This document shows positions 266-57,300 of a DNA stretch of 64,000 bases, piece after piece (position 1 is the stretch's first letter; each line of letters begins with the position of its first letter). The stretch lies in IMG/VR virus record IMGVR_UViG_3300037808_002146; one strand, written 5' to 3'. The position numbers and the translations under genes were made by a program. Origin of the DNA: a virus (taxonomy: Duplodnaviria > Caudoviricetes). The notes below the pieces were generated by a model. The model ran no database searches, was not told the origin of the DNA, and saw only the letters and a program-made list of their open reading frames with translations.

Positions 266-303
266 TATTACACTCTCTAAAATTACTAAATAAAACCATT
301 TAG

Positions 304-332
304 ATTATAAAACTCTAATTATAAATATTCAC
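304..332 (-). promoter_or_regulatory. sigma70-like promoter GTGAAT-N17-TATAAT upstream of the DHH gene
   Basis: Exact TATAAT with a 17-nt spacer in the AT-rich intergenic gap, same pattern as five other sites in the window. Confidence 0.55.
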
Positions 333-334
333 TT

Positions 335-919
335 TTACTCGTTTATGAAATGAGCAAAACATTTAGGCTGATACATTTCCGATCCCCCTACCTCTATTCT
401 TTCATGACCTTCACCTGATATTTTTTCAGTAAAATAAGCATCTTCGCCACAACCGGAACAAACCGCGGGACATATTTGTATGTTAGTAGCCCATGGGAGC
501 ATTTTATTCATTTCTTTATAGGGCTCCCCATTAGAAGAAAGTTGAAGACTAGAAACTAAAACGGTTTTTCCAGATTTATAAATATCTATCAAAACATCGG
601 AAACCCCATCGATCATGAAAGCCTCGTCTAAAGCAACAACGTCTACTTCATGTTGCTTGTTATAGGCGTTAAAATATCGATATAAATCAAAGCTAGAGTT
701 TACCCTAATCATTTTATTAAAATTATCCTTACCGCACTTCCACTCTATGCCAGAATGCGTTACTACCGAATCTTCAGAATACCTTACGTCGACTCTTGGC
801 TTAAAAAGCAAGACATTCTTATTTTGATACTTGTATCTTTCCAAAGCGGAAAGCAACCTAGTAGTTTTTCCACCAAACATAGGACCAGTAAATATTTCAA
901 ATCTAGGGTTATTCTTCAT
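335..919 (-). CDS. tdk: thymidine kinase
   Basis: Walker A GPMFGGKTT, LFKPRVDVRY, Walker B VVALDEAF, zinc-binding CPAVCSGC, and IEVGGSEMYQPKC. Confidence 0.93.
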   Translation of the reverse strand: MKNNPRFEIFTGPMFGGKTTRLLSALERYKYQNKNVLLFKPRVDVRYSEDSVVTHSGIEWKCGKDNFNKMIRVNSSFDLYRYFNAYNKQHEVDVVALDEAFMIDGVSDVLIDIYKSGKTVLVSSLQLSSNGEPYKEMNKMLPWATNIQICPAVCSGCGEDAYFTEKISGEGHERIEVGGSEMYQPKCFAHFINE

Positions 920-1898
920 TAGTACTCCACCAAGCTATAGTTTTATCCAAACCCTCCCTTAAATCTACTTTACTAGTAAAACCTAAGATTTCTCTAGATT
1001 TAGAAATTTCAGCTCTCGTATGCCTAACATCCCCAACTCTCTCTGGGGCATTTATTATCTTTATTTCAAACCTCTCCCTAAGCAAATCAAGTATATCATT
1101 ATTACTATAACTTTTGCCAGTTCCTATATTAAAAATATCGCCTGAAAATTTTGCTTTGTTTAGCGAAGCGATAATATTAGAATCTACAATATCACCAACA
1201 TATACCATATCACGAGTTTGTTCACCGTCGCCGTCGCTTCTGAGTGGCTGTAACCTTTTAATTTTATCCATCCAAGCTGATATTGCTGTAGAATATGGGC
1301 TGTCGCCTAACTGCCCTGGTCCATAAGCATTAAAGTACCTTAAGCAAACGCTGTCTAAGTCGTAAAGCTTCGAGTAAAGAGAACAATAATCTTCGACTAT
1401 TCTTTTTTGAAGTGCATATGGAGATTCAGGGTTAGTCTCTCCGGATTCTATAGATGGAAAATTATCTAAAGAGTTACCATAAATCGCAGATGAGCTACTA
1501 AACACAAACCTTTTAACGTTATCGATGCAAGCTGTCATAAGCAAGACTGATTTTGTAACATTCTGTTCTGTTGTTACAACCGGATTTTTTACAGAATACT
1601 CAACCCTTGGTAATGCTGCTAAGTGGAAAATTATATCGTATTTTTTTTCCGCAATCCTCGATAAAATCTGAGGAGCTGCAAAATCTCCCGTGATTACCAA
1701 AGTTTTATTAGAGTCTTTAGAAGAATCATATCTAGCTAGTAGTCCTGGAGTTATAACCCTAATATCTATAGAAGAGATGTTATCTATGTCTCCATTGGAG
1801 AGATCATCTACAACGTCTACTCTCCACCCTAGATTCACCAGTTTTTTAGTTAGGTTAGAACCAATAAAACCACACCCGCCGGTAACTAAAGCTCTCAT
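909..1898 (-). CDS. NAD-dependent NDP-sugar epimerase/dehydratase (extended SDR, GalE/WbpP-like)
   Basis: VTGGCGFIGS Rossmann motif, HLAA, FSSSSAIYG, catalytic YALQK (YxxxK), LRYFNAYGP, GDGEQTRD. Confidence 0.92.
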   Translation of the reverse strand: MRALVTGGCGFIGSNLTKKLVNLGWRVDVVDDLSNGDIDNISSIDIRVITPGLLARYDSSKDSNKTLVITGDFAAPQILSRIAEKKYDIIFHLAALPRVEYSVKNPVVTTEQNVTKSVLLMTACIDNVKRFVFSSSSAIYGNSLDNFPSIESGETNPESPYALQKRIVEDYCSLYSKLYDLDSVCLRYFNAYGPGQLGDSPYSTAISAWMDKIKRLQPLRSDGDGEQTRDMVYVGDIVDSNIIASLNKAKFSGDIFNIGTGKSYSNNDILDLLRERFEIKIINAPERVGDVRHTRAEISKSREILGFTSKVDLREGLDKTIAWWSTNEE

Positions 1899-3052
1899 AG
1901 TTCTCCCGAAGTTGTCTTTATGTTATCTTGTCTATAATTGGAAAAACCAGAATCTTCTAACTCTCCATGGAGATATTTTATTACTTCGTATGTCATATCT
2001 CTCGCGGTGCAAGTTGGAACATTTTGAGCTACATCATTTAATCTCTTGGTTTGAAGATTAAAGTCAGATGGAAGTCCCATTAGGTGCATTATCTCTCTAT
2101 GACTCATCCCTCGGGGTTGGGTAGGGTGCATTATCATTTGCAAAGTTCTTCCAACTATTGCGTTAGTACATGAATTATAAAAAGCTGGAGAATGATCTAA
2201 AAAACTTTTCCCCATAGACAGCTTGTTTTTGATGTGTTCAAATTTTCTAACTTCTTTGTGTTCTGGGTTGTGTGTTGTAAGCCACTCTAAACATTCATCA
2301 ATCAATTCGTTTCGTACGATAAATTGGTGAATTGAGTGAGCTGGACCAGAACCAAACTCGCCGATAAAGTCTTTATGCGAAAACCCATATTTTTCAAGCA
2401 AAAAAGTGTAAGAAGGGAATTTTTCAAAAATATTGTTTATATTGTATAAGTCTTGTTGTTTTGAACTGCCAGGAATTTTTCCTAAATAATCAATCAAATT
2501 ATCGTGCTCCCTATCATACCAATTCATAATCGGAGCATTTTTCGAATCCCAAAAAAAATAAAATGTTCGCAGCCTCTTTTGAGGAATCCCATGCTTGAAT
2601 GTCGAAGTTCTATATATTGAAAAAGAGTATCCATTATCTTCAGCGATTTGCTTAAGCTGCTCTCTAACGCTATTTCCTGATTTTGTATAAAGGGCTGGAG
2701 CATTTTCTCCCCAGTAAACCTTTGGCCTAAGTTGCTCTAAAACTAGTTTCGATGTTTTCATCATCCAAACATTTTGGCTATCTCTAGTTGACCGATCTTG
2801 ACTGGTATTCAGTTGACTCAATCCCGCACAAGGGCAAACTGAGTTGACAAAATCTAAATTATCTTCTGGCAAAATAGATTCGTCTAAGTCGATTCTCCTA
2901 ACATTAGGCCAGTAGTTAACTAAGTGGTTTTCGTTTTGCTCAAAAGCCTTAAAGCTCAAATGAAACTTGGGTAAGTTTCCAGTTGCTTGGCTACATCCTA
3001 TCGCAGATCCGCCTATTAACGGGATCATAGTAGCCCAAGATATATCACTCAT
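1895..3052 (-). CDS. C5-cytosine DNA methyltransferase-fold protein with atypical motif I
   Basis: Catalytic PC motif IV (VCPCAGLS), motif VI (WGENAP), motif VIII (HGIPQKRLRTFY), motif IX/X (MGLP...AQNVP). Motif I reads IPLIGG instead of FxGxGG. Confidence 0.75.
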   Translation of the reverse strand: MSDISWATMIPLIGGSAIGCSQATGNLPKFHLSFKAFEQNENHLVNYWPNVRRIDLDESILPEDNLDFVNSVCPCAGLSQLNTSQDRSTRDSQNVWMMKTSKLVLEQLRPKVYWGENAPALYTKSGNSVREQLKQIAEDNGYSFSIYRTSTFKHGIPQKRLRTFYFFWDSKNAPIMNWYDREHDNLIDYLGKIPGSSKQQDLYNINNIFEKFPSYTFLLEKYGFSHKDFIGEFGSGPAHSIHQFIVRNELIDECLEWLTTHNPEHKEVRKFEHIKNKLSMGKSFLDHSPAFYNSCTNAIVGRTLQMIMHPTQPRGMSHREIMHLMGLPSDFNLQTKRLNDVAQNVPTCTARDMTYEVIKYLHGELEDSGFSNYRQDNIKTTSGEL

Positions 3053-4446
3053 TTTTTTCTCCTAACCCTCTTTTGCTTGTAACAAGCAAACTCTCTACGA
3101 GCTTTCTTCTCGAAGAAACATAACGATTGATTTGTAACTTGTTTAATACCAACAGCTGGGATTTTTCCTTGTTCGATTATCTTGAGGTAGTCTTCAAAAA
3201 CTCTTTCGCTTTGAAAGAGGTGGGTGAGCATCTCTTTGTCATTTGTGAATTTGTTGTTGTCTTTTCCAGCCTTTAGAATATAGTCAAACATTTCTGGCAA
3301 AACGTTGTCAGCGTTAAACTCTCTATCGATAAAATCAAAACTAGAATCCCTGTATTTTTGTTGCTCTAACGGGTTGTTAGCAATTGATATTAGTTTATCC
3401 GCTGTTTCTCCCAAGTCGTCTCGAGAAGACCAAACAGCTAGATAGTCGTTATCGATGTACTTACTCCCGTTGGAATCAGTGTTATGTTCTCCATAGTGTT
3501 TATCAAAAACAGGAATAGTTCCACATCCTATAATTTCGATTTGTGTATACTCCATCCTATCGCCATAGTTGTGTGGTTCTTTTGGTAGCCGGTAAAAAGA
3601 GCAGCCAAATAAAGAGGTGGAGATTAGATCCATACCGTCAGCATAATCATACGGGCCAAAAGTGGGAACTCCATCAAGATCCCAGTCATAATTTTCAAAC
3701 TTCAAATTATAGATAGAATTTGGGTGATCTATAATATCGAACTTAGCCCCAATAGAGCGTTCAATACCGTGAAGAGCTAAACGAAAAGATGGATCTTTTT
3801 CTTTCATTATAGGATATAAATCTAAAACGCGGCGAGGATCCTTCATAGAAGTCCAGCGACCTACGTAAGTTAGTTTTCGTTCCTTTTCATTTAAGCTAAA
3901 TTTATCCCTATAATTTTTCTTTAATTCAGATAAATCTACCCACATTTTGAATCTCTTTGTTCTTTCCCCTAAGACTTTGCTGGGCAAATATGAGGAAAAC
4001 TCTTTTGAAAAGAAAGTTTTTTCCGAGAAATTATAAACAATATCACAGTAATTTAGAATAGGGATAATCATCGGAATAGCATCGATATTAGCTTTTTTAA
4101 TTTCGTGCATCATTCCAACCAAGACTGGTTTTTTAATCTTTTTAACTAAACCCTCATAAAAAGACATCACTGCTTGAGGAGAATGCTTAGAGGAGGGATA
4201 AGAGTTGAGAATAACTGTATCATATTCGCGGTTTAGCTTCTCAACCAGAGAGGGGATCTCTGTATGCTTAAACTCAATTGGCTCAATTGGCATAGAGTGC
4301 CCTTTAGCTCTAGCAAAGCTTCGTCCTTTCATAAAAAATATATCAAATTTGACATCATTCCTTTGCGCCCAAGTAGCAATCTCAACTGCTCCTCTTTGAA
4401 CGCCACAGCCATCAAGCCCTTTGCCAAAAATCATAGCAATTTTCAT
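3049..4446 (-). CDS. agt: DNA alpha-glycosyltransferase, T4 Agt-like (GT-B fold)
   Basis: Collinear matches to T4 alpha-glucosyltransferase as recalled: GKGLDGCGV (ARGLEGCGV), LNSYPS (INSVPA), MHE (QHD), YVGRWTSMK (WIGRTTTWK), HGIERS (EGLERS), MEYTQIEIIGCGTIPVFDK (LEYTHLELGACGTIPVFWK). Confidence 0.85.
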   Translation of the reverse strand: MKIAMIFGKGLDGCGVQRGAVEIATWAQRNDVKFDIFFMKGRSFARAKGHSMPIEPIEFKHTEIPSLVEKLNREYDTVILNSYPSSKHSPQAVMSFYEGLVKKIKKPVLVGMMHEIKKANIDAIPMIIPILNYCDIVYNFSEKTFFSKEFSSYLPSKVLGERTKRFKMWVDLSELKKNYRDKFSLNEKERKLTYVGRWTSMKDPRRVLDLYPIMKEKDPSFRLALHGIERSIGAKFDIIDHPNSIYNLKFENYDWDLDGVPTFGPYDYADGMDLISTSLFGCSFYRLPKEPHNYGDRMEYTQIEIIGCGTIPVFDKHYGEHNTDSNGSKYIDNDYLAVWSSRDDLGETADKLISIANNPLEQQKYRDSSFDFIDREFNADNVLPEMFDYILKAGKDNNKFTNDKEMLTHLFQSERVFEDYLKIIEQGKIPAVGIKQVTNQSLCFFEKKARREFACYKQKRVRRKK

Positions 4447-4898
4447 TTATTTTTTCTCCCCGTTTTTAAGACTCTTTCCCTCAACTGCGTAGTAGAGAAA
4501 GAATGCCTCCTATTATTATAATGGATAGGACATAAGTCAACGCCTGTATGGTTTGTGCCTTTGTACTCTTCTCCAACTACCCTAATGTCTGGGTTTATTG
4601 TCAAGATTACATCAACTAAATCTTTTTCAGAACCAAATGGAATTATTTCATCTACATATTTGCATGCAGCTAACTGCAAATATCTTTCCATAATACTTTG
4701 AATTGGCTTATTCTTTATTTCTGGACGATCGTTTGTAGGATCTGTCAAGAGTCCTACGATCAAGTAATCACAAAGCGATTTACTTTCCTGCAGCATCACA
4801 ACATGTCCAGCATGGAATAAGTCGAAAGTAGAACACGTAAAACCAACAATCGGATCTCTTCCCAAGCTTTCTGCTAGTTTCTTTTTATCTAAAAACAA
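4443..4898 (-). CDS. cytidylyltransferase-family nucleotidyltransferase (TagD/RfaE-II-like)
   Basis: FTCSTFDLFHAGH (HxGH), LIVGL, CKYVDEI, C-terminal FSTTQLR. Small single-domain size. Confidence 0.88.
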   Translation of the reverse strand: MFLDKKKLAESLGRDPIVGFTCSTFDLFHAGHVVMLQESKSLCDYLIVGLLTDPTNDRPEIKNKPIQSIMERYLQLAACKYVDEIIPFGSEKDLVDVILTINPDIRVVGEEYKGTNHTGVDLCPIHYNNRRHSFSTTQLRERVLKTGRKNK

Positions 4899-5973
4899 TT
4901 TTTACTTCCTTGAAAATATCTTGAATTCTTTTTCTTACAAGGCTTTTTTGGTTTTCGGGCTTATACTTTAGCATTCTGATATAATGAATCATCTCGCACA
5001 ATAAGAAATACCTAGAAAAATTAGGTTTAAATAACCCAAGTAGATGACTAAAAAGATCCTCTTTATCAACTTTAGCTTCAAAACCAGAAAAACTTTCTTC
5101 GTAAGAAGAGTGTAAAGATTGATATATCTTTCCAACGTCCATAACCCAAGAACTATATACATTTCCTGGACAATTAGGGTCTATGAGGTATACTTTTTCA
5201 CCTCTAACGATGCAATTTTCAAAAGTAAGATCTCCATGAGAAAAGCTAGCTTCGATATTCATAAAATCAGCAACTTGATCGCTTTCTAAGAGTTTAATAA
5301 TATCACTTTCGTTTCTTACAGCGTTTAAAGACATATGATCTTTAACACGATCAACCATAGTTTGCCAATTGCTGTTAGTAACTTTTATATCACTAAACCT
5401 TGTTAGCAAATCTACCAAATAATCTATGTGCTCTTTGGTGCATACATCATTTAAGCTAACTCCGTCCAAGAACTCCATGTCCAAAGTATCTCCATAATAA
5501 GTATTAACTTTTGGAACATGACATAAACTACCAGCTGAATTATACCAGTGTGCTTGGTCTTTAGCGTTGCTAGCTTTTTTGATGATTCTATCACCAACTT
5601 TCTCTACAGAGCCTCCCGATCCACCTTTTAAGACTTCATAGTCTAAATCCATAAATTCCTCTGGGCGGATTGCTTTATCGTCGATGTAGTATACCCCGAT
5701 TGGTTTTCCAAACATCAAACTGTGATACTTCACGCTGTGTTTCTCCATCCAAGACTCTAAAACTGGTCGACGAAGCTGGTTTATTAAGTCTAAGTCTCCG
5801 CTACATGAAACCTGTCCTCGAGCGGTAAAATATATAATTTTCCAACCCGATTCATACATCTTGTTAAGTTTGTTGATAATTTTAGTATGAGGAACTGCAT
5901 TTTCATAATCACGATTCCGATGTGTAGATATCGTGTCATCAACATCGACGACTAGAGTTCGTGTTTCTACCAT
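4885..5973 (-). CDS. fusion of a short HAD phosphatase and an APH/choline-kinase-like phosphotransferase (start revised to ATG 5973, 362 aa)
   Basis: HAD motifs VVDVDDT, YFTARG, FGKP and YYIDDKA, then kinase motifs HGDLTFEN and LIDPN. The ATG overlaps the dut stop codon (TAATG). Confidence 0.8.
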   Translation of the reverse strand: MVETRTLVVDVDDTISTHRNRDYENAVPHTKIINKLNKMYESGWKIIYFTARGQVSCSGDLDLINQLRRPVLESWMEKHSVKYHSLMFGKPIGVYYIDDKAIRPEEFMDLDYEVLKGGSGGSVEKVGDRIIKKASNAKDQAHWYNSAGSLCHVPKVNTYYGDTLDMEFLDGVSLNDVCTKEHIDYLVDLLTRFSDIKVTNSNWQTMVDRVKDHMSLNAVRNESDIIKLLESDQVADFMNIEASFSHGDLTFENCIVRGEKVYLIDPNCPGNVYSSWVMDVGKIYQSLHSSYEESFSGFEAKVDKEDLFSHLLGLFKPNFSRYFLLCEMIHYIRMLKYKPENQKSLVRKRIQDIFKEVKIVFR

Positions 5974-6410
5974 TAAATTACTCCTGTACTCCCAAAACCA
6001 CCTTCGCCTCTTTGGGAATTTACACAAAATAAATCCTCAATGCAAACTTCCTCGATAGAATCGTAAAAAACTGGAACTAAAATCATTTGTACTAGTTTTT
6101 CACCAGCACAAATAGTTTCTGCTTTGTTTCCAAAATTGTAAACATGGAGATGGATTTCACCTTGATAGTCTTCATCTACGATACATGCGCCAACGGATAA
6201 ACTTCTCTTTAAAGCAACCCCGCTTTTATTAAAAACTATTAAAGCAAACCCATTAGGTACGTTCGCTTTTACGCCACTAGGAATGCAAGCTGAGTTTCCT
6301 GGTTCAACGACAAAATTTTCAAAATCGTTAGGGACAAAGAAATCTATACCGGCAGATTTTTCAGTTCCCCTAATTGGGGTTTTTACATCTTTAATTTTAG
6401 AAATCTTCAC
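5973..6410 (-). CDS. dut: trimeric dUTPase (start revised to GTG 6410)
   Basis: Motifs SAGIDF, NKSG, IVDEDYQGEI, EKLVQMI, RGEGGFGSTG. The GTG has an upstream GAGG and overlaps the previous stop (GTGA). Confidence 0.93.
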   Translation of the reverse strand: MKISKIKDVKTPIRGTEKSAGIDFFVPNDFENFVVEPGNSACIPSGVKANVPNGFALIVFNKSGVALKRSLSVGACIVDEDYQGEIHLHVYNFGNKAETICAGEKLVQMILVPVFYDSIEEVCIEDLFCVNSQRGEGGFGSTGVI

Positions 6411-6685
6411 AGTTTTTCCTCTTTTATAAAATTGTGCCAAGCGCCTAAATAGGCAACAGCATCTAACAAATTGTCATCTTTGAAATTATAAGATTGGCGG
6501 CTTAGTTTGAGGGCAACAAGTGATATATACATATCATGAGCTGTAATATCCTTTCCGGACATGCCTCTAGCGATACTAGCAGCTCTTTGCATCCCTTCAC
6601 CAAAAGGTCCATACTCTCTTTCTTTTTCTTCAGATCTTTCGTTGACGATTTGATTTGCTTGCTTTAAGATATTGTCTTTATTCAT
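6407..6685 (-). CDS. small all-alpha protein, DUF6378-like, possible nucleotide pyrophosphohydrolase (start revised to ATG 6685, 92 aa)
   Basis: ILKQANQIVNERSEEKEREYGPF, LVALKLSR and DNLLDAVAY resemble phage DUF6378-type helical proteins. It lies between the TS homologue and dut. Confidence 0.5.
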   Translation of the reverse strand: MNKDNILKQANQIVNERSEEKEREYGPFGEGMQRAASIARGMSGKDITAHDMYISLVALKLSRQSYNFKDDNLLDAVAYLGAWHNFIKEEKL

Positions 6686-7508
6686 CACTAAAAATTTCTC
6701 CACTGCAGTTTTTAACATAATCGTATATTTCAGCTTTTTCAACCTCTGCGATAGGAAAAGAAAAATTTTCATTAATCAACTTCCAGTTAACGTTACTGTT
6801 CAATCTACAAGTATCTAATCCTTTGTCAACATTAAAGTCACTACTATTTATACTTTCAATCATTTTGTAATGCTTTTCATAAACATGCAAGCTACCAGCG
6901 TAGTGAAAGTAACTCCCTAGTTCTAAGCTCATGCCAGTTTCGTTTAGTTCATTCAACATAAGCTGCTGAAATAGCGAAAAGGTGAAAACATCGTTACACA
7001 AACCGAAAATTAAATCGTTAGATCTCATATTAACGCCTAGGTGGAGTTTATTATCCCTAACGAAAAACTGAATATAGTGCGTGCAAGGATAGTCTTTTGA
7101 ATTCTTGAACTTATGATAAGGTTGATTTATCACAAAAGTTGCACGGCGAGTATCTCGATCAATTATAATCTCGTTTTTCACCCAGTTCCATTGCGGTTTT
7201 AGATAGACTCCATAATTGGATTCAACTTCGCAAAATTGATCTGAAATCATTTTCCATATTTTAGCTAATTTCCCGATATTTAAGGAAGAAGAATTAGCAG
7301 ACAAGTACCACATCCACTCTGCTATGGCATAATTTTTGTTAAATTTTCTCTCTGGTAGCGTAACGTTAATACGCGTAGGATCTGAAATTTCAAAGCTTTG
7401 GAATATCACTTCCTTTTGTTTGGAGTTTCTTGCATTCACTTCAGGAGAATCTAGTAAAACAGAGCTATAGTGTTTTAGTAGATGGTTTATAGAGTTAAAT
7501 TTATTCAT
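6678..7508 (-). CDS. thymidylate-synthase-family enzyme, dCMP hydroxymethylase-like (T4 gp42 type)
   Basis: Catalytic Glu (IAEWMWY) and Cys (YPCTHYIQF), then MRSNDLIFGLCND and GSLHVY. Asp occupies the position where dUMP enzymes have Asn (E. coli ThyA N177), as in T4 gp42 (RSNDVVFGFRND). Confidence 0.8.
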   Translation of the reverse strand: MNKFNSINHLLKHYSSVLLDSPEVNARNSKQKEVIFQSFEISDPTRINVTLPERKFNKNYAIAEWMWYLSANSSSLNIGKLAKIWKMISDQFCEVESNYGVYLKPQWNWVKNEIIIDRDTRRATFVINQPYHKFKNSKDYPCTHYIQFFVRDNKLHLGVNMRSNDLIFGLCNDVFTFSLFQQLMLNELNETGMSLELGSYFHYAGSLHVYEKHYKMIESINSSDFNVDKGLDTCRLNSNVNWKLINENFSFPIAEVEKAEIYDYVKNCSGEIFSDE

Positions 7509-7513
7509 GTAAT

Positions 7514-7542
7514 ATTATACTTCAAAAATCTTAATTTTTCTA
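7514..7542 (-). promoter_or_regulatory. sigma70-like promoter TAGAAA-N17-TATAAT, 5 nt before the ATG of the modification operon (likely leaderless mRNA)
   Basis: Embedded in the dnaE 3' end. No Shine-Dalgarno sequence fits between TATAAT and the ATG at 7508. Confidence 0.55.
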
Positions 7543-10500
7543 AATTGAGTTGAAAAGCCAAAATCAGACTTATCAAGTTCGGCAACACAAAGTGAGTAAG
7601 GATTCAAAATAGAATCTTCTTTCGTACCCCAACAGAATACCCTATTTTTTTCCCCATTAGATCCTATAGCATCTAAAAGAAAGTAAGGCTTATTGTTTTT
7701 AGTTTTCTTTTTATTAACCTTAGTAGCTACTAGCCAATAAAGATTTTTTTGATTCCACTCTTCTATAGGGAGGATAGATAACTCTTCAAACCTGCTAGAT
7801 AACTTTTCAGGAATTAAATTACCAACATTTATAGTTCCAAGTAAAGATTCTTCAAACTCCATATTTTCTTTAATGCTCCAGTCTTCACTCGGGTAATTTA
7901 GAGAAACTTCGTTCAAATTGTCTCTTCCTTGAAAAGGATTCTTTTTAGTGCTCTTTCTTAATGCTGGCCAATTTTCGCTAACACATTCGTAGAATTGCTT
8001 GTAAGATTCAAAATAACCTTGCCAATCTAGGGAATCCAGTGCTCTAATCTTCAGGAGAGATTCGAGAGTCTTTTTATTTAATTTTGAGTGTTTCCACTTG
8101 CCATCTTCATTCCAGAGCAGATCATCAATATTTTCATAAGGTCGGTTGTTAAGTATCTCTTCAATAGCTGCCTCGCCTATGCCTTTACAGGAAAAGAAAG
8201 ATGGCATCAAAACCTTATCGTCGACTGGTGTCCAATTTTTTCCAGCTTTATTAAGGTCAATATTTGTTGTCGTGTATCCCAACTTTTTAACTTCACTCAA
8301 TGCTTTGGAAAGCTTGTTTGGATTAGACGAAACTGCTTCGAGGTAAGCGGTTATCCATTCAGCCTCGTAGTAAGTCATTAGCCAAGCGCAATAGTACGAA
8401 TTTATAGCATAAGAAACAGCATGTGACTTATTGAAACCGTAGCCAGCAAAATACAAAATCTTCTCGTAGAGATCTTCGGCGACGTGCTTTTGAACTCCAT
8501 TAGAAATAGATCCGGCAAGGAACTTATCTTTAAGATCTCGAGCTTTTTCGATATTTTCATTTCCAGAACCAACAGGCTTCATCATCTTACGCATTGCGTT
8601 ACATTCGTCTTTCGGGATACCCGCGACGACATGACATAAGTTCATGACTTGCTCTTGAAAGATTATACAACCATAAGTTTCTTTCAAACATTCTTCAATA
8701 AGCGGATGGCCATAAACTACACTTTCTGGATTCTTTTTTGCTCCAATATAAAGTTTATCTACCTTAGCACTCAGCGGGCCAGGACGGTATATAGACGTCA
8801 GAGTTGCGATATCTATTATTGATTCTGGTTTAGCACGCTTAAAGAGGGCTTGAGCGCCCCTCTGCGTGCACTGGAATATAGCAGCCCACTTTCCAGAATG
8901 ATAGACATTTTTATAAACTTTTTGATCGTTAAAATCAATTTCTTTAGTTGACATATTGACATCGAACCATTTTTTCACTTGTTGAAAATCTGGATTTTCA
9001 ATACCCTCTTTCTTAAGAACCAGTCTAATAGTTTGCTCAATTATTCTCAAAGTTTCTAATCCAAGCAAATCAAACTTAATCCACCCAAACTCTTCTAAAT
9101 GCTTATAGTTCATACCTTCAACCCACGGAGTTTGAACTTCTCCACGAGCTAAAATTACAGGCATCCTCTCGGCAATTCTTTCTGAAATTATAACACCACC
9201 AGCGTGGCGACCGAGAGCTTTGTTTTGCTTGAATAAAACCTTTAGAGGATCAAGTATTTCTGGATACTTTTCTAAATAGTTCTTCAAAGATTCTGAGTAC
9301 TTTAAAGCTTCATCAATATGAATATCGAAAGAATCTTCTGATTCTGCATCGTTCTTCCGTCCTCTCTTTACATCTACTTCCAATGGAGCTAAAGCTTTGT
9401 TTGCTTCTTCGAATGGGACTCTATAAAACCTCGAAACGTCCTTAATCAATGACTTCAACTTAAAGGTGTTATAATTCGAAATTGGTACAACATTTGATTC
9501 TCCAAAGTTATCCCTTAATAAAGATATTAACTCGTCACGGTCTCCTACATCAGAATCGATGTCTGGCATTTCGTTTCTCTCTGGAGATAAAAATCTTTCA
9601 AAAAGCAAACCGTTAGAAACTGGATCAACATCCGTGATTCCTAAAGCGTAATTCACCAAACTACCCGCGCCAGAGCCTCTGCCCGGGCCGATGAGCATTT
9701 TTTCTCGCGCAATATCGAGGATAGCTTTCATCGTTAGAAAATATTCGGAAAAATTCTTGCTTTTTATAACCACGAACTCTTCTCTCAATCTCTCAATATA
9801 GATAGGGTTTTCATGTAGACCTCGATCTATCAAGCCTTTCTTACAAAAATCTAAAAGAGCTTGAGTTGCTGTTTTTCCTTTAGGGATTACATAAGATGGT
9901 AATTTCATGCTTCGATCTGGGTTGATGTCTCCAATCTCGTCGTGGACTATGTTGTATGGACGTTCAATAGCTTCGCAAATTATTTGATCGTCGTAAAAAT
10001 CCATGTCAGAAGTTGTACTTAAGTAAGAATCCCACACTTGCTCTGCGTTTTTTGGATAAAGTTCGCAAGAAAGATCGCTTTGAGATTTAGGTAAAGAGTC
10101 TGGATCAAAGTCTCTGAAGTTAAGCCAGCCAAGCTTTTTGTATATTTCTCTTTCCCTCCAGTGTTCCGGGCGAGCGTAATGTGAATCTGTCGTAACTACC
10201 AACTTGTCTGTTAAACCTTGAGATTTTGCAAATTCAATTATAGATCTATTGACCAAGTGCTGAGCCGGAAGCTTGTTAAACTGTAACTCTAACATTACGT
10301 CGTCTATTCCGACGGAATCTACCAAGCCTTGATATGCATTTCCTACGCCATTCATAACTTTGCTTCGAAAAGAGTTATCATCTAAGAGTGTATGACTAAG
10401 ATCGTTAAACTCTACTTGTTGGGCATGCCTAAAAACTTCATAAGCGATTGGGCCGCCTATACATGCAGTAGAAACCATCAAATGACCTCCTTCGGCGGCT

Positions 10501-11096
10501 TCTTTTAACATCTTATAGTCAATCCTAGGAAATCTATAGAAACCTTCTAGGTAACCTTTAGAGACTAAGTTAAAAAGCCTAGACAAGCCTTCTGATGTTT
10601 TTGGAAGGACAACCAAGTGGTGACGCCTCTTGACAGGATCATAAAACTTTGCTGATTTTGATTCTTCCTCGTTTTCAATAGTCAAACTTCCTTCGTCCGT
10701 AGAGAGTTCTACCGTTTCATCGTCTCCATCTACTTTGGCGAACAGTGGAGTTCTAATTCTCTCTCTTTGTTCTCTAAGCTTTAGAATAGACTCTTTGTCG
10801 CCTTTCTTTGCAGCTTTAGCTAATTCATAATCCAGATTCCAAATATCTAGATTTGGGTGAACATACATTTCACATCCGGGGACAAACTTAAAATTACCTC
10901 CACGCTTTTTAATTTTCTCTGCATGCAAGAAAGCGTGAGCAAAACTGTTCATGTGACCATGATTAGTGAGACACCAGCTATCCATCCCGTTTTCTAAAAC
11001 AAAATCTATGTGTTCTTGTGGATATCCCAAGCCATCGAAGGTTGAAAAACCATCATGTGCATGGAGGGAGGTAAACTTTTTTGGAACAATTTTCAT
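7515..11096 (-). CDS. dnaE: DNA polymerase III alpha subunit (family C, DnaE-like)
   Basis: PHP domain (LHAH, TNHG, GCEMY, HHL, STAC, TDSHY), GPGRGSGAGS, catalytic PDIDSD and KFDLLGL, YGFNKSHA, HhH and OB fold. The protein ends after the OB fold. Confidence 0.96.
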   Translation of the reverse strand: MKIVPKKFTSLHAHDGFSTFDGLGYPQEHIDFVLENGMDSWCLTNHGHMNSFAHAFLHAEKIKKRGGNFKFVPGCEMYVHPNLDIWNLDYELAKAAKKGDKESILKLREQRERIRTPLFAKVDGDDETVELSTDEGSLTIENEEESKSAKFYDPVKRRHHLVVLPKTSEGLSRLFNLVSKGYLEGFYRFPRIDYKMLKEAAEGGHLMVSTACIGGPIAYEVFRHAQQVEFNDLSHTLLDDNSFRSKVMNGVGNAYQGLVDSVGIDDVMLELQFNKLPAQHLVNRSIIEFAKSQGLTDKLVVTTDSHYARPEHWREREIYKKLGWLNFRDFDPDSLPKSQSDLSCELYPKNAEQVWDSYLSTTSDMDFYDDQIICEAIERPYNIVHDEIGDINPDRSMKLPSYVIPKGKTATQALLDFCKKGLIDRGLHENPIYIERLREEFVVIKSKNFSEYFLTMKAILDIAREKMLIGPGRGSGAGSLVNYALGITDVDPVSNGLLFERFLSPERNEMPDIDSDVGDRDELISLLRDNFGESNVVPISNYNTFKLKSLIKDVSRFYRVPFEEANKALAPLEVDVKRGRKNDAESEDSFDIHIDEALKYSESLKNYLEKYPEILDPLKVLFKQNKALGRHAGGVIISERIAERMPVILARGEVQTPWVEGMNYKHLEEFGWIKFDLLGLETLRIIEQTIRLVLKKEGIENPDFQQVKKWFDVNMSTKEIDFNDQKVYKNVYHSGKWAAIFQCTQRGAQALFKRAKPESIIDIATLTSIYRPGPLSAKVDKLYIGAKKNPESVVYGHPLIEECLKETYGCIIFQEQVMNLCHVVAGIPKDECNAMRKMMKPVGSGNENIEKARDLKDKFLAGSISNGVQKHVAEDLYEKILYFAGYGFNKSHAVSYAINSYYCAWLMTYYEAEWITAYLEAVSSNPNKLSKALSEVKKLGYTTTNIDLNKAGKNWTPVDDKVLMPSFFSCKGIGEAAIEEILNNRPYENIDDLLWNEDGKWKHSKLNKKTLESLLKIRALDSLDWQGYFESYKQFYECVSENWPALRKSTKKNPFQGRDNLNEVSLNYPSEDWSIKENMEFEESLLGTINVGNLIPEKLSSRFEELSILPIEEWNQKNLYWLVATKVNKKKTKNNKPYFLLDAIGSNGEKNRVFCWGTKEDSILNPYSLCVAELDKSDFGFSTQFRKIKIFEV

Positions 11097-11145
11097 CTAA
11101 TTTTCCTATCGAAGAATGAGTTTTAAGAACGATTTATTCTAATTG

Positions 11146-13548: not shown

Positions 13549-14286
13549 CTATGGAGAAATTTGAGATACGACACTTATAATTTGCTGGAGTATCGAAGAA
13601 TTTGATCCTAGATTTTCAACTTCTACTTTATCTTCAAAGAGGGATAGGTTTTTTAATTTAGATAGTTTCTTTTTTTCGCTAACTTTTAATTTTTTTAAAA
13701 GCTTTATAGAAAATTTTAATAAATTAGAGCTTCTTTTAGTAATAGGAACTATCGAGCAATGGGCCGAAATGAAAAAATTTAAACAAAAAAACCTTGTGAA
13801 CTCGATGTCTGATATTAAATCTAAAAAGCTATCGCTCTCAATACCTAACAAAATCGTGTTCGAATCTTTTATTTCGAATTTTCGTATAGATATTCCCAAA
13901 CTTAAGAGTTGATCGCACAAAGACTTTATTGAAGAATTTAGTCTAGCGTTAATATTAACTGCGCCTATATTTTCGTATTCAGTTAACTTACTTTCTTCTT
14001 TCAAAATATATCTTAAGGGAATAGTTCCGCTGGCTTCGCTCGTAGTAGAGGCTAAATTTTCGCTTAAGGATTTAACTGACTTTGAATTTGGAGAACAGTA
14101 ACAAACGAGGCCATTAACAGGATCGTTATAAACTTTGAAAGGAAAAGATTCATGATTTTCTTCAAAACTTGGATTTTCTATAATATAAGTGAATTCTCCA
14201 TTCTCTTCTTTTCGTTCTAACCTTTGAGTATAAGTCCTATAGACTGCAGAATCATTTAATAGATTTTCAAAGTAAGTAACCCACAT
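13549..14286 (-). CDS. hypothetical protein (245 aa)
   Basis: Long ORF on the coding strand, TAATG-coupled to clpP. No motif recognised. Confidence 0.75.
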   Translation of the reverse strand: MWVTYFENLLNDSAVYRTYTQRLERKEENGEFTYIIENPSFEENHESFPFKVYNDPVNGLVCYCSPNSKSVKSLSENLASTTSEASGTIPLRYILKEESKLTEYENIGAVNINARLNSSIKSLCDQLLSLGISIRKFEIKDSNTILLGIESDSFLDLISDIEFTRFFCLNFFISAHCSIVPITKRSSNLLKFSIKLLKKLKVSEKKKLSKLKNLSLFEDKVEVENLGSNSSILQQIISVVSQISP

Positions 14287-14888
14287 TATTCAAGCTCTAT
14301 CTCGATATTTACGTCTACTGTAATCTTCGGTACTCTTAACTGATTAGCTAATCCGTGCTTCTTAGCTTCATCTGCATCTAGAAACCAATCTGCATGCTTT
14401 TTCTTATCGACTAACTTCATGAAGTAGTCATCCTTTTTGCCGCAATTTCTCGCCATCATTGTGTAGATAGTCGTATTGAGTCGATCAGCTTCTTTTGCAC
14501 CAGCTTTGAGTTCCTCAACCTTACCGAAGTCCATGCTAGCAACATCATGAATCATAACCGTTGCATTTGGGTCCATAAATCTTAAACCCTCTTCCCCAAA
14601 AGAGAATAGAATTGCCCCACAAGACATTGCTTTCCCTTCGACAATTGTCGCAATCGGCAACTCTGAATGCTTTATCGCAGATATCATCGCCATTAAGCTA
14701 TAAACTTGACCCCCATATGAGTCGATCACAACTGGTATTACTTTTTGACCAGTGTTATGAGCTCTTGCAATTTCTTGATCAAATTTCTTAGCAGCTTCTT
14801 CGTCGAATTTGTTAACTCTTACGATAACAGGATTGTGACGCATCTCTACTTCTTTTATCAGGGGCGATATTTTTGTTGTCCACTTCAA
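14286..14888 (-). CDS. clpP: ClpP-like serine protease, peptidase S14 (start revised to TTG 14888)
   Basis: IDSYGGQVY, catalytic Ser in KAMSCGA, His in VMIHD, Asp in ADWFLDADEA. AAGGAGA RBS before the TTG. Confidence 0.85.
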   Translation of the reverse strand: MKWTTKISPLIKEVEMRHNPVIVRVNKFDEEAAKKFDQEIARAHNTGQKVIPVVIDSYGGQVYSLMAMISAIKHSELPIATIVEGKAMSCGAILFSFGEEGLRFMDPNATVMIHDVASMDFGKVEELKAGAKEADRLNTTIYTMMARNCGKKDDYFMKLVDKKKHADWFLDADEAKKHGLANQLRVPKITVDVNIEIELE

Positions 14889-14901
14889 TTTTCTTTTCTC
14901 C

Positions 14902-17370
14902 TTAAGAACACTTTGAATAGCCGCAAGAAGTACATGCAACGCAACCCTCTTGGTACTTTAATGAATTTTCAGCTCCGCACTCGGGACAAACTTTACTCCC
15001 GCCAGGAACTGTTCCATCATCAATATATTTTTTAAGAACTCTAGAGATAACCTTCGCAAAAGAAAATAAGTGAGCATCTCTATCTTTCTGAAGTTGTTCT
15101 ACTATATACTGAATTGGAGCTCCATGACGTAACGCTAAAGATATAACTCGGGTGAAGCCAGCGTAATCTGGGTTATCGAATACCTTAACAATATCCTTAA
15201 CTACAACTTCACTGCCATTTTCCCCAAAATGCAAATCATACTTCGAAGCCATAGTTTTTCTAGAACGTTTCGTAATTTTCCCATACGAATAAGTTGGTGG
15301 GATTTCAATATATTCAGATTTTCCACCTAAAACCTCATAAGGTCGGCCGGACATTAGACCAACCAAAATAGTCCAAGCTTCGCCTTTTACCTGAGTCCTA
15401 TGTATTTCACACTCCAGAGTTTCTGGTCGTTTTGGAGCATTAACAACTTCTACAGAATTGTTGTTTTCTCTCGACTCAGCACTCACTAAAACTCCAGAAC
15501 GACATCCATCCCTATAGACTGTCAAACCTTTTAGTCCTTGCTTCCAACCCCTCCAATAGACATTTTTAACATCGTCTATTGAGACTTCTCTTGGCAAGTT
15601 TATCGTTTTGCTAATCGCATGGCAAACCCATTTTTGAGCCGCAGCTTGTACGTCAACAGCGGATTCCCAGTTAATCTCGTTTGCAGTGGACAAGTTGTAG
15701 GGACTATCCTCTATTTTAGACAACCCTGATATATTCATCCAGTCTTTGAAGCCATGATGATAAACATCGAACTCTCGCCACTCATCTCCTAGATCATCAA
15801 CAAAGTCTACTTGAGCTTCGAGATCATTCGGATTAACCTTTTTCCTCCTCGTATACTTTAGCATAAAGGCTGGTTCAATCCCGGATGTTGTTTGAGTGAG
15901 CATCGATACACTTCCGCAAGGTGCTGTGGTTGTCAATGCTATGTTTCTTCTACCATGAAGAGAGTGCAAATCTCTAACTTCTGAGCTTTGTTCAAAAATT
16001 CTTTTGATAAATGGGTGATTTAATTCTTTTTCGAAATCGTATACAGGGAAAGCTCCACGCTCTTTAGCTAACAAGCAAGAAGAAGTATACGAAGAGATGC
16101 AAAGGTTTTTATATATCTTTTCTGTCTCATTTATGCTCTCTTCACTGCCATACGTTAACCCGAGCATTGCTAAAGTATCCCCTAGACCTGTAACTCCTAA
16201 ACCTGTCCTTCTCCCATTAATTGCAGCTTTTTTTACTTTGTTCCAAAGATCGAGCTCTGTAGATTTAACGGAATCTGACTCTGGATCTGCTTTAATTTTT
16301 AAAATGATTTTATCAACGCATTCCATTTCAAGATCAATCAAATCATCCATCAGTCTTTGAGCTTTTTTGGTGTTTTTATCAAAAAGCTCGTAATTAAACC
16401 TGCTTTGTTTTGTGAATGGCTTTTCAACAAATGACGTTAGATTCAAAAGTAAAAGTCGGCAACTATCATATGCTGAGAGCGTTATTTCGCTGCATGGGTT
16501 TGTACTAACAGTGTCGAAACCAACATCGCTGTAAGCTTGCGCGGGAGTGTATTTTAAGACATTGTCCCAAAACAAAAGACCAGGTTCAGCGGAAGTATGA
16601 GCTGACTCAATTATTTGATCCCAAAGCTTTGACGCATCAGTTGTTCTAGACACTAGCTTATTTTCTTCACCGGAAACCGGATACCTTAGTTCAAATTCCT
16701 TTTTTTCCTCAACGGCTTCCATAAATTCGTCGGAAAGCCTTATTGATATATTGGCTCCAGTTACTTTCGTCAAGTCTCGCTTGATATTAACAAAAGTTTC
16801 AATATCGGGGTGGTGAACTGAGATTGTTAGCATTAGAGCACCGCGGCGTCCTCCTTGAGCAACTTCTCTGCAACTATTTGAAAACCTTTCCATAAAGATG
16901 CCAATTCCGTCTGTTGTTTTTGCTGCGTTGGAAGTAGATAGACCTTGAGGTCTAATTGAGGATATATCAAACCCTACGCCTCCGCGGCGTTTCATAATCT
17001 GGACTTGCTCTTGATCAGTTTTTAAAATTCCACCGTAGGAATCTTGAGGTGCTTCTACAACAAAACAGTTAGAAAGAGACTGAATTTGGTTTGTGTTGCC
17101 AATGCCAGACATTGGAGATCCCTGGGGAACTACGTACTTAAAGCCCTCTAGCAGCGAGTATATTTCGCTTTCAGACATAGGGTTAGGATAATTCGATTCA
17201 ATCCTAGCAAACTCAGAAGCAATTCTTTTATGCATATCATTTGGATTTTTTTCCAAAAAAGATCCGTCTTTTGAGACTAAAGCGTATTTAGTAGCAAAAA
17301 CATTGGCTGCTAATTCGTCTCCACCAAAATATTTCTTGCTTGATTCCACGACTTCTTCAAAAGTATACAT
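14902..17370 (-). CDS. nrdJ: class II (adenosylcobalamin-dependent) ribonucleotide reductase with C-terminal TSCPD-like domain and Zn ribbon
   Basis: SLSNCFV, GGVGFD, QGGRRGALM, thiyl-radical loop TNPCSEI, TTAPCGS, TSGIEP, LKGLTVYRDGCR, terminal CPECG...CTSCGYSKC. No adjacent nrdB. Confidence 0.9.
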   Translation of the reverse strand: MYTFEEVVESSKKYFGGDELAANVFATKYALVSKDGSFLEKNPNDMHKRIASEFARIESNYPNPMSESEIYSLLEGFKYVVPQGSPMSGIGNTNQIQSLSNCFVVEAPQDSYGGILKTDQEQVQIMKRRGGVGFDISSIRPQGLSTSNAAKTTDGIGIFMERFSNSCREVAQGGRRGALMLTISVHHPDIETFVNIKRDLTKVTGANISIRLSDEFMEAVEEKKEFELRYPVSGEENKLVSRTTDASKLWDQIIESAHTSAEPGLLFWDNVLKYTPAQAYSDVGFDTVSTNPCSEITLSAYDSCRLLLLNLTSFVEKPFTKQSRFNYELFDKNTKKAQRLMDDLIDLEMECVDKIILKIKADPESDSVKSTELDLWNKVKKAAINGRRTGLGVTGLGDTLAMLGLTYGSEESINETEKIYKNLCISSYTSSCLLAKERGAFPVYDFEKELNHPFIKRIFEQSSEVRDLHSLHGRRNIALTTTAPCGSVSMLTQTTSGIEPAFMLKYTRRKKVNPNDLEAQVDFVDDLGDEWREFDVYHHGFKDWMNISGLSKIEDSPYNLSTANEINWESAVDVQAAAQKWVCHAISKTINLPREVSIDDVKNVYWRGWKQGLKGLTVYRDGCRSGVLVSAESRENNNSVEVVNAPKRPETLECEIHRTQVKGEAWTILVGLMSGRPYEVLGGKSEYIEIPPTYSYGKITKRSRKTMASKYDLHFGENGSEVVVKDIVKVFDNPDYAGFTRVISLALRHGAPIQYIVEQLQKDRDAHLFSFAKVISRVLKKYIDDGTVPGGSKVCPECGAENSLKYQEGCVACTSCGYSKCS

Positions 17371-22913: not shown

Positions 22914-23413
22914 TAATCATCCCAAGTCTTTTTGTTTCCTTGATATATTATAATCGCTCCTGAATTGTTTTCAACTTGAATCAAGGAACTAACTTTTAAC
23001 AAGCCAGCATTTTGCGACCCAATTAATGTATGGTAGATATATTTGACACCATCACGAGAGCTAATTTCTGAAGTTTTTACTTTTAATCCCGACTTAGCGC
23101 CTCTAGTAACTTGGGAAAGACCAGTATAAACTTTTTTCATAGTCTCCGTGCCAACAAAAGCTTGACGTAATATATTTTTTATTTTTTCCATATCGTCAAC
23201 TCCAGTAGCTGATGATATCTTTAAGTTCTTCATAAGCTGCTTTGGATCCTCCGCGGCTAGTGCGCCGGCTTCTTTTACACCAGTGGAGAAACGACCGCTG
23301 CCAGTAGAGGCCTCTATTCCAGCTTTACTCTTTTTTTCCGGCTTCGCAACTGTCTTCTCTTCTTTTTCTTCAGTAAGAATATCTCGAATAATATCTTTTG
23401 TTGAAACTTTCAT
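22913..23413 (-). CDS. hypothetical protein (166 aa)
   Basis: N-terminal KDIIRDILTEE motif, Lys/Gly-rich. Coupled to both neighbours. Confidence 0.7.
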   Translation of the reverse strand: MKVSTKDIIRDILTEEKEEKTVAKPEKKSKAGIEASTGSGRFSTGVKEAGALAAEDPKQLMKNLKISSATGVDDMEKIKNILRQAFVGTETMKKVYTGLSQVTRGAKSGLKVKTSEISSRDGVKYIYHTLIGSQNAGLLKVSSLIQVENNSGAIIIYQGNKKTWDD

Positions 23414-56929: not shown

Positions 56930-57300
56930 TACGCACCTACTATCCCAGCTAAACCAGTAATATCTGGAAAATCTGCAGCACTTATGTTAGTGAGGCCAGC
57001 TAAAATATTGACTTCTTTACCACCGGCATGGGTAACCCAAATAGACTTCACCTTCAGCTCTAACCGGGGTGATATTGTTGCAGGCGGTATTTTAATGTAT
57101 TGGCTATTACCATTTCCGGTAGCAGAGAACGCAATTTGTACCACAGTGTCAGACGGGTTAGAGATAACAATGTAACGAGTAACATAGGGAAAGTCTACTT
57201 TGGTGTTACTAGCAGCTACTAACTCTTGCAACCAAGGAATAGAACTAGACTGATACTCGGCAACATGACCGTGATGTGGTTTTGCAGTATCTAAAGGCAT
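56929..57300 (-). CDS. beta-rich virion protein (start revised to ATG 57300)
   Basis: TAATG coupling to the protease gene; FPYVTRYIVISN, RLELKVKSIW. Confidence 0.6.
   Translation of the reverse strand: MPLDTAKPHHGHVAEYQSSSIPWLQELVAASNTKVDFPYVTRYIVISNPSDTVVQIAFSATGNGNSQYIKIPPATISPRLELKVKSIWVTHAGGKEVNILAGLTNISAADFPDITGLAGIVGA

Follow-up and report, generated by a model that had tools for sequence, protein, structure and literature searches.

A phage gene that joins a phosphatase to a kinase, followed at once by genes for a nucleotidyltransferase and a DNA glycosyltransferase, raises the question of which compound these enzymes activate and where it is used. We studied such a locus within a stretch of 64,000 nucleotides (nt), referred to below as the window, from the virus record IMGVR_UViG_3300037808_002146 (Duplodnaviria; Caudoviricetes), which represents a giant phage, T4-like and uncultured. 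Hypermodification of DNA governs the cutting of phage genomes by restriction enzymes, CRISPR nucleases, and type IV systems. The initial annotation of the window had described, at positions 4443–5973, a polypeptide with the motifs of a HAD phosphatase and an APH-type kinase, coupled to an HxGH nucleotidyltransferase and then to a homolog of the phage T4 DNA alpha-glucosyltransferase (AGT), and had proposed that the genes form a donor-activation module. The genes and motifs were confirmed at these coordinates, and the proposal is borne out by synteny across viral loci, by homology to the enzymes AfhF and AfhE of arabinosylating phages, and by a published reconstitution. We consider it highly probable that the fusion and the nucleotidyltransferase together make up a self-contained cassette that activates a sugar for DNA glycosylation.

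A Phosphatase–Kinase Fusion Coupled to a Nucleotidyltransferase and a DNA Glycosyltransferase

The open reading frame (ORF) spanning 4885–6027 on the minus strand actually starts at the ATG at 5973, with an AGGAG 8 nt upstream, and encodes a protein of 362 residues that equals a database sequence (P0001) encoded on a 209-kb contig. Residues 1–111 make up a capless, TIGR01689/AfhF-like HAD domain and residues 112–362 a kinase domain. The motifs named in the initial annotation (DxD, T, K, and DD for the HAD part; HGD..N and DP for the kinase) are all present, and in an alignment of 39 homologs with identities down to 29%, they are invariant: D10-x-D12-D13-T14, T50-A-R52-G53, K90, and D98-D99 in the former, and G117-G118-S119, K132, H246-G247-D248...N253, D265-P266, and D279 in the latter. 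The invariant columns of the alignment are precisely the catalytic residues.

An AlphaFold2 model of the fusion had a mean predicted local distance difference test (pLDDT) score of 91.4. In Foldseek searches, residues 1–111 resembled the capless HAD structure 1xpj (template modeling score of 0.74 on the target), and residues 112–362 matched fructosamine-3-kinase, ethanolamine and choline kinases, LicA, 5-methylthioribose kinase, APH(3'), and maltokinase with a probability of 1.0. The sequence of the HAD domain matched the Protein Data Bank (PDB) entries 1xpj (1.8e-19) and 9iqw (6.5e-15) and the family phrog_1238 (1.6e-23). Against TIGR01689 it scored 82.9 bits, below the cutoff of 162, and it is a relative of that subfamily (EcbF/BcbF, AfhF, and 1xpj) lying outside it by the NCBI threshold. 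A Pfam search with the fusion returned no family at E≤0.01, PF01636 included, although a few of its homologs do carry PF01636, and the assignment of the second domain therefore needed fold and profile evidence. This part of the protein has the HxDxxxxN loop, the Mg-binding D265, the ATP-binding K132, and the bilobal fold of APH/choline-kinase-like enzymes, and it is predicted to act as an anomeric kinase on a sugar phosphate. A role in nucleic-acid end healing of the PNKP kind, to which weak matches to phrog_415 and PF25109 could point, was dismissed because the synteny and the reconstitution data, like the fold of the kinase, speak against it.

From the fusion through the thymidine kinase gene, consecutive genes overlap by 14, 4, 4, 4, and 11 nt, the first value being the overlap between the fusion and the nucleotidyltransferase and the second that between the nucleotidyltransferase and the glycosyltransferase. 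The nucleotidyltransferase gene starts with TTG. Its product has an H29-A-G-H32 motif and, in the C-terminal part, the sequence SFSTT, which lines up with the ISTT motif of TagD. The best PDB matches of this protein are ethanolamine-phosphate cytidylyltransferase (ECT), TagD, and HldC. The top NCBIfam model was rfaE_dom_II, the heptose-1-phosphate adenylyltransferase domain, with 71.5 bits (cutoff 181.5); the TagD model TIGR01518 reached 64.3 bits (cutoff 165.4). The protein is predicted to be a sugar-1-phosphate nucleotidyltransferase of an HldC/TagD-like kind.

The glycosyltransferase that follows, a protein of the GT-B fold, is the predicted user of the cassette's donor. It aligns end to end with T4 AGT (1xv5, 4.4e-19, residues 1–392), the homology thus extending over the full length, and in both phages the acceptor 5-hydroxymethylcytosine (5hmC) is owed to a gp42-type enzyme. 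T4, however, takes UDP-glucose from its host and has no donor pathway, whereas in the window a donor cassette precedes the transferase, which carries an extra C-terminal tail of about 70 residues. The gp42-like deoxycytidylate (dCMP) hydroxymethylase predicted to supply 5hmC is a thymidylate-synthase homolog in which NMRSNDLIFGLCND aligns to NMRSNDVVFGFRND of the T4 enzyme, with the hydroxymethylase signature SND and the dCMP-specific Asp. No Tet_JBP gene was found in the close relatives G001 and G002 or among the scanned ORFs of the window.

Synteny of the Gene Pair Across Viral Loci

A scan of IMG/VR identified 411 viral contigs encoding a relative of the fusion, far above chance. We retrieved 80 loci from these contigs, called their ORFs, searched them with the window proteins, and clustered the neighboring genes; 78 of the loci carry the fusion and 70 have at least three downstream genes. 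The nucleotidyltransferase was found within four genes of the fusion in 67 of these 70, mostly as the immediate next gene, and a DNA-type glycosyltransferase was near the fusion in 63. The gene calls were crude (longest ORFs, translation table 11) and break down in four TAG-recoded contigs (L043–L046), which makes the number of loci with a glycosyltransferase a minimum. The fusion gene in these four (e.g., L043:9995–11074) has five in-frame TAG codons and a TAA stop, and TAG seems to be decoded as an amino acid in these phages; the L043 locus has a GC content of 30%, and one of the four records, 188 kb long, is a complete genome that has terminal repeats.

At 50% identity, the fusions of the sampled loci form 20 clusters, and the glycosyltransferases of the 78 loci fell into five clusters: one AGT-like (15 loci), one of GT-B proteins resembling T4 beta-glucosyltransferase (beta-GT) and BshA (31), one of Glycos_transf_1 (10), and two of the TET-associated glycosyltransferase (TAGT) family PF20691 (11). 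The second of these, with proteins of about 420 residues, had weak Pfam support, and we therefore modeled its 426-residue member from locus L053 (pLDDT 88), which in structural searches most resembled T4 beta-GT and BshA (3mbo). As hhalign gave a probability of just 2.5% between the glycosyltransferase cluster A3 and the AGT-like protein of the window, we treat the two as different families that share the GT-B fold. The neighboring thymidylate-synthase homologs mostly have the dCMP-specific Asp plus the hydroxymethylase SND motif, and the module occurs in 5hmC pathways based on a hydroxymethylase as well as in those based on a methylase and TET. Among 27 related phage records, many of them incomplete, TET was found in one. 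In loci of the TAGT type (L015, L030, L038, L041, and similar), the pair comes with a radical-SAM protein of some 430 residues, and a family of about 213 residues with no Pfam match recurs; these two families hint at extra tailoring of the sugar or the base.

The arrangement extends to phages far from the window. In the unrelated Agathobaculum phage AB434P2, the fusion, the nucleotidyltransferase (51% identity), a 328-residue member of the glycosyltransferase cluster, and a hydroxymethylase are encoded by consecutive genes. Synechococcus phage S-CBWM1 has a stand-alone homolog of the kinase domain (5e-25), and there the HAD, a GlmU-type NTP-transferase, and the kinase are three adjacent genes. 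A protein of 656 residues (P0090) combines NTP_transferase, HAD, and kinase in a single chain, and one of 638 residues (P0091) looks alike; two proteins of about 240 residues (P0088 and P0089) are fusions of PF01467 and HAD. That the three activities were fused repeatedly and in varied combinations argues for one common pathway.

A precursor pathway for capsule or lipopolysaccharide (LPS), acting as a moron in host-surface remodeling and separate from the adjacent DNA glycosyltransferase, would fit two observations. Databases call the HAD family "capsule biosynthesis phosphatase," and an LPS-core locus of Alcanivorax limicola (L085:7944–9925), with Glyco_transf_8, a WaaY-like gene, two WavE genes, and HldE, also encodes a 141-residue HAD homolog followed by a 519-residue AfhE-like protein whose C-terminal half can be aligned to the AfhE-type kinase (4e-12). 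This locus likely represents the cellular ancestor of the phage module, which would fit an LPS-sugar origin of the latter. For the phage genes themselves a moron role is improbable to a high degree: the pair precedes a DNA-type glycosyltransferase in about 90% of the loci and does so within 5hmC pathways, translational coupling ties the window genes to the AGT homolog, and among 185,579 species genomes, scanned with two narrow peptide patterns that distant relatives could escape, the single match was the HAD-only homolog of A. limicola.

A Published Heptosylation Module of the Same Architecture

A module of this kind has been reconstituted. The biosynthetic cluster named contig 53 encodes a bifunctional HAD-like/APH-like enzyme, a cytidylyltransferase, and a GT-B enzyme (GT53) with reported structural matches to T4 beta-GT and BshA; all three were essential in Escherichia coli for the formation of heptosyl-5hmC, giving the products 5-HepmC (449) and 5-di-HepmC (641), on 5hmC that a methylase and TET had made in DNA (Pyle et al., bioRxiv 10.1101/2023.12.21.572611). 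The window shares with contig 53 the adjacent order of bifunctional HAD–APH gene, PF01467 nucleotidyltransferase, and DNA GT-B, and the parts of both are named by the same hidden Markov model (HMM) families (TIGR01689/APH and CTP_transf_like/TIGR02199). The two differ in the source of 5hmC, which in contig 53 is a C5-methylase plus 5mYOX/TET and in the window a gp42-like dCMP hydroxymethylase acting before replication; in the transferase, GT4/beta-GT-like in the former and AGT-like (GT72) in the latter; and in the GalE-like epimerase that the window adds. The kind of module is thus already published, and the window presents it with a prereplicative 5hmC pathway, a transferase of the AGT family, and an added epimerase.

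The IMG/VR locus L053 links the two. Its gene order (PolB, canonical C5-methylase, Tet_JBP, a 365-residue protein, fusion, nucleotidyltransferase, 426-residue GT-B, and RecA) is the layout of contig 53, and the structural matches of its GT-B protein mirror those of GT53. The window nucleotidyltransferase is 68% identical to that of L053 and the fusion 32%; across 62 distant loci, the median identities to the window proteins are 62% and 34%, respectively. The far better conservation of the nucleotidyltransferase suggests that the nucleoside diphosphate (NDP)-sugar is conserved.

The initial annotation had allowed that the kinase acts instead on the modified nucleotide, and in that case the kinase, perhaps with the phosphatase, would serve the nucleotide pool, for example as the missing hydroxymethyl-dCMP (hm-dCMP) kinase. 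The genes nearby include those for a dUTPase, the hydroxymethylase, and a thymidine kinase, and a Tmk-type nucleotide kinase was found neither in the window nor in any of five related records, which are incomplete; the search did not extend to gp1-type kinases. The alternative did not hold up. The pair of fusion and nucleotidyltransferase also sits in postreplicative methylase and TET clusters, which have no free hm-dCMP, and in the reconstitution glycosylation required the fusion even though 5hmC arose within DNA and free hm-dCMP did not exist (bioRxiv 10.1101/2023.12.21.572611). Moreover, the fold is that of small-molecule and sugar kinases rather than P-loop nucleoside monophosphate kinases, and RB69-type phages have AfhE plus two nucleotide kinases. 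We regard action on nucleotides as the least probable of the explanations considered here.

Related Enzymes in Arabinosylating Phages

Characterized relatives of the fusion's parts belong to phages that arabinosylate their DNA. AfhE is an arabinose-5-phosphate (Ara5P) kinase and UDP-arabinose pyrophosphorylase with an N-terminal NTP-transferase and a C-terminal APH-like domain, AfhF is an Mg-dependent HAD enzyme that takes the 5-phosphate off Ara-1,5-bisphosphate (PMC13326640, citing He et al. Nat Chem Biol 2026), and the two belong to the UDP-arabinofuranose pathway of the arabinosylating phages HY126, RB69, and DLP3 (PMC13326640). The HAD domain occurs alone in about 300 T4-like phages, at 38–43% identity to that of the window, and lies there between an arabinose-5-phosphate isomerase, a 561-residue protein, and a thymidylate-synthase homolog. 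This is the arabinosylation cluster of RB69, DLP3, and HY126, and in HY126 the HAD protein is AfhF. When the fusion was compared by BLASTP with the AfhE-type protein from phage NHEP10, the alignment covered just the catalytic loop at E=0.14, which is not significant. Because the direct comparison fell short, the homology of the kinase to the C-terminal domain of AfhE was established through the triple fusion P0090, which is similar both to the window fusion (1e-15) and to the AfhE-type protein (3e-12).

The two systems thus share the HAD family (about 40% identity and a 1xpj-like fold), a related kinase domain, and the logic of kinase, phosphatase, nucleotidyltransferase, and DNA glycosyltransferase. 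They differ in how the parts are joined and in what surrounds them. In the window, the kinase shares a chain with the HAD, and a separate Rossmann-type HxGH protein (PF01467) is the nucleotidyltransferase, whereas AfhE joins the kinase to a GlmU/MurU-type NTP_transferase (PF00483). The acceptor is 5-hydroxycytosine in the Afh phages and, by prediction, 5hmC in the window.

With the same chemistry on a pentose, host arabinose 5-phosphate or ribose 5-phosphate would become an NDP-pentose and then pentosyl-hmC. The resemblance of the HAD to AfhF-type phosphatases and the transitive homology of the kinase to AfhE speak for a pentose, as does the reported action of AfhE and AfhF on Ara5P and Ara-1,5-bisphosphate (PMC13326640). 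A KdsD-type isomerase (SIS) was, however, found in none of the 27 related records and not among the scanned ORFs of the window, whereas the Afh phages encode their own arabinose-5-phosphate isomerase; the thymidylate-synthase homolog of the window has the hydroxymethylase signature and keeps the Asp of SND, unlike the Afh-type 5-hydroxy-dCMP synthase with its D169N; the nucleotidyltransferase fold is not that of the N-terminal domain of AfhE; and the sole reconstituted module of such an architecture yielded a heptose (bioRxiv 10.1101/2023.12.21.572611). A pentose is therefore unlikely, if less so than the other alternatives.

Proposed Pathway and Identity of the Sugar

In the pathway that we infer, the kinase domain would first transfer a phosphate from ATP to the anomeric hydroxyl of a sugar phosphate made by the host; D-glycero-D-manno-heptose 7-phosphate is the likeliest candidate for this substrate. 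The fused HAD domain would then strip the distal phosphate from the bisphosphate to leave a sugar 1-phosphate, although the reverse order, phosphatase before kinase, may apply. The HxGH enzyme would couple the sugar 1-phosphate to an NTP, giving an NDP-sugar with ADP or CDP as the nucleotide. The GalE-like epimerase may modify this NDP-sugar in an optional step, and the AGT-like GT-B enzyme would finally move the sugar onto 5hmC that the gp42-like dCMP hydroxymethylase had placed in DNA.

The bacterial ADP-heptose pathway (GmhA, HldA/HldE, GmhB, HldC/HldE domain II, and HldD) has the same order of reactions: anomeric kinase, HAD phosphatase removing the distal phosphate, HxGH nucleotidyltransferase, and epimerase of the short-chain dehydrogenase/reductase (SDR) family. 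Its enzymes are of different kinds, however. The ADP-heptose kinase is of the PfkB family and its HAD is GmhB, whereas the window has an APH-fold kinase and a TIGR01689-like HAD; the ADP-heptose pathway includes GmhA, none of which was found for the window; the window epimerase is nearer to GalE/WbgU than to HldD; and all window enzymes score under the equivalog cutoffs of the ADP-heptose HMMs (HAD-IIIA 16.5 vs. 44.6). Of the pathway parallels drawn in the initial annotation, that with NDP-heptose synthesis is upheld by synteny, homology, and the reconstitution, while that with CDP-polyol synthesis is possible but less likely.

The systems AmgK/MurU and LicA/LicC also produce activated donors by means of an APH-fold kinase and a nucleotidyltransferase but, unlike the window, have no phosphatase step, use GlmU-type transferases, and deliver their products to cell-wall and surface polymers. 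A route of the Kennedy or teichoic type, in which the kinase would act on choline, ethanolamine, or glycerol and the HxGH enzyme would make a CDP-alcohol for the transfer of a phospho-alcohol to hmC, could appeal to the ethanolamine and choline kinases and LicA among the fold matches of the kinase and to the ethanolamine-phosphate and glycerol-3-phosphate cytidylyltransferases among the PDB matches of its partner. Such a route would leave the fused and invariant HAD phosphatase without a role. The transferases that accompany the pair (AGT, beta-GT-like, and TAGT) are sugar-transferring DNA glycosyltransferases, the relatives of known substrate within the kinase's clade are sugar-phosphate kinases, and the product of the reconstitution was a sugar (bioRxiv 10.1101/2023.12.21.572611). 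We judge this route to be very unlikely.

Returning to a sugar donor, we give a heptose a slightly better than even chance: it was the sugar obtained in the reconstitution, the nucleotidyltransferase is strongly conserved, and rfaE domain II ranks first among the NCBIfam models for that enzyme. Several observations weigh against a heptose. The scores of the nucleotidyltransferase for TagD and rfaE domain II are nearly equal and both are below the cutoffs, and the epimerase is far closer to UDP-hexose and HexNAc 4-epimerases than to the ADP-heptose 6-epimerase. The presence of a GmhA-like isomerase gene in just one of the 27 related records means that the host must supply the substrate, and full-length homologs of the fusion occur in phages of Gram-positive hosts, where heptose 7-phosphate may be unavailable. 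Lastly, the proposed equivalence of the window module and contig 53 draws on architecture, shared HMM families, and L053 rather than on the contig 53 sequences, and with the fusion just 32% identical to that of L053 and a transferase of GT72 rather than GT4, the donor specificity may differ.

The epimerase itself has 6wjb, 4zrm, and WbgU as its best PDB matches, with HldD at just 3e-23, and scores 138.6 bits against heptose_epim (cutoff 274.6). An epimerase gene sits between the nucleotidyltransferase and the glycosyltransferase in two of the viral loci (L014 and L021), and the window enzyme possibly tailors the donor. The AGT-family transferase of this phage may have given up UDP-glucose for a non-UDP donor that the phage makes and then epimerizes, so that the DNA would carry a sugar as yet unreported there; we put this forward tentatively, as a possibility with the chances against it. 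Equally tentative examples of such a sugar are a C4-epimerized heptose or another sugar from the metabolism of a marine host.

Genomic Context

The genes at 300–11100 all lie on the minus strand and are closely packed (Table 1), with Shine–Dalgarno-like sequences before the gene starts in the cassette. The dUTPase-family gene is directly upstream of the fusion, and its stop codon and the start of the fusion share 1 nt. The rest of the window has T4-like replication and virion genes (ribonucleotide reductase, DnaB-like helicase, UvsX, baseplate, tail tube, and gp21 protease). Megablast of positions 300–8000 against 50,697 phage records gave no match, i.e., no close relative is among them.

Table 1. 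Genes in and around the proposed sugar-activation cassette of the window
Feature	Position	Strand	Remarks
DnaE-type polymerase	7515–11096	(-)	Bacterial-type Pol III alpha, 1193 aa
gp42-like dCMP hydroxymethylase (thymidylate-synthase homolog)	6678–7508	(-)	Best PDB match T4 dCMP hydroxymethylase, 1.9e-20
DUF6378 protein	6407–6772	(-)	Between dUTPase-family gene and hydroxymethylase
dUTPase-family protein	5973–6440	(-)	PF00692 1.8e-21
HAD phosphatase/APH-fold kinase fusion, 362 aa	4885–5973	(-)	HAD 5641–5973, kinase 4885–5640
HxGH nucleotidyltransferase, 151 aa	4443–4898	(-)	CTP_transf_like PF01467 9e-16
T4 AGT-like GT-B DNA glycosyltransferase, 465 aa	3049–4446	(-)	PF11440 1.3e-9, phrog_2888 3.8e-98
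Divergent C5-cytosine-methylase-like protein, cassette end	1895–3052	(-)	PF00145 2e-16
SDR nucleotide-sugar epimerase, GalE/WbgU-like	909–1898	(-)	PF01370 2e-47
Thymidine kinase	335–919	(-)	

The C5-methylase-like protein scores just 60.8 bits against PF00145, and the motifs IPLIGG, PCAG, ENA, and QKRLR were recognized by eye; the canonical methylase of L053 (185 bits) is weakly similar to it. Its gene comes after the glycosyltransferase in 30 viral loci and co-occurs with gp42-like hydroxymethylases without TET. With a hydroxymethylase present and TET absent, ordinary cytosine methylation seems pointless for this protein.

Further genes of the window may be recorded here. The DUF6378 protein is kept in the close relatives L004, L005, and L007, and its PHROG families are oddly named "phosphofructokinase." The DnaE of bacterial type is encoded by a phage with T4-like structural genes, and a 385-residue protein at 23410–24567 (-) matches PHROGs of the DNA polymerase I type. 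There are two distinct protease genes, at 14286–14939 (-) and 57300–57908 (-): one is a 217-residue protease matching PHROG families of head maturation proteases and ATP-dependent proteases, and the other a prohead core protease of the gp21 type (Peptidase_S77).

Implications for DNA Glycosylation in Phages

The cassette of the window opens no new class of system. Its phosphatase–kinase and nucleotidyltransferase instead represent a portable donor-supply unit, found with five clusters of glycosyltransferases and with both routes to 5hmC. For the phage of the window, the prediction is a sugar other than glucose on hmC, taken from a donor of the phage's own making. The locus thereby offers a testable case for a change of donor specificity within the AGT family and for the host sugar phosphate that the cassette taps. 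If true, the switch to a phage-made donor would free the phage from the UDP-glucose pool of its host.

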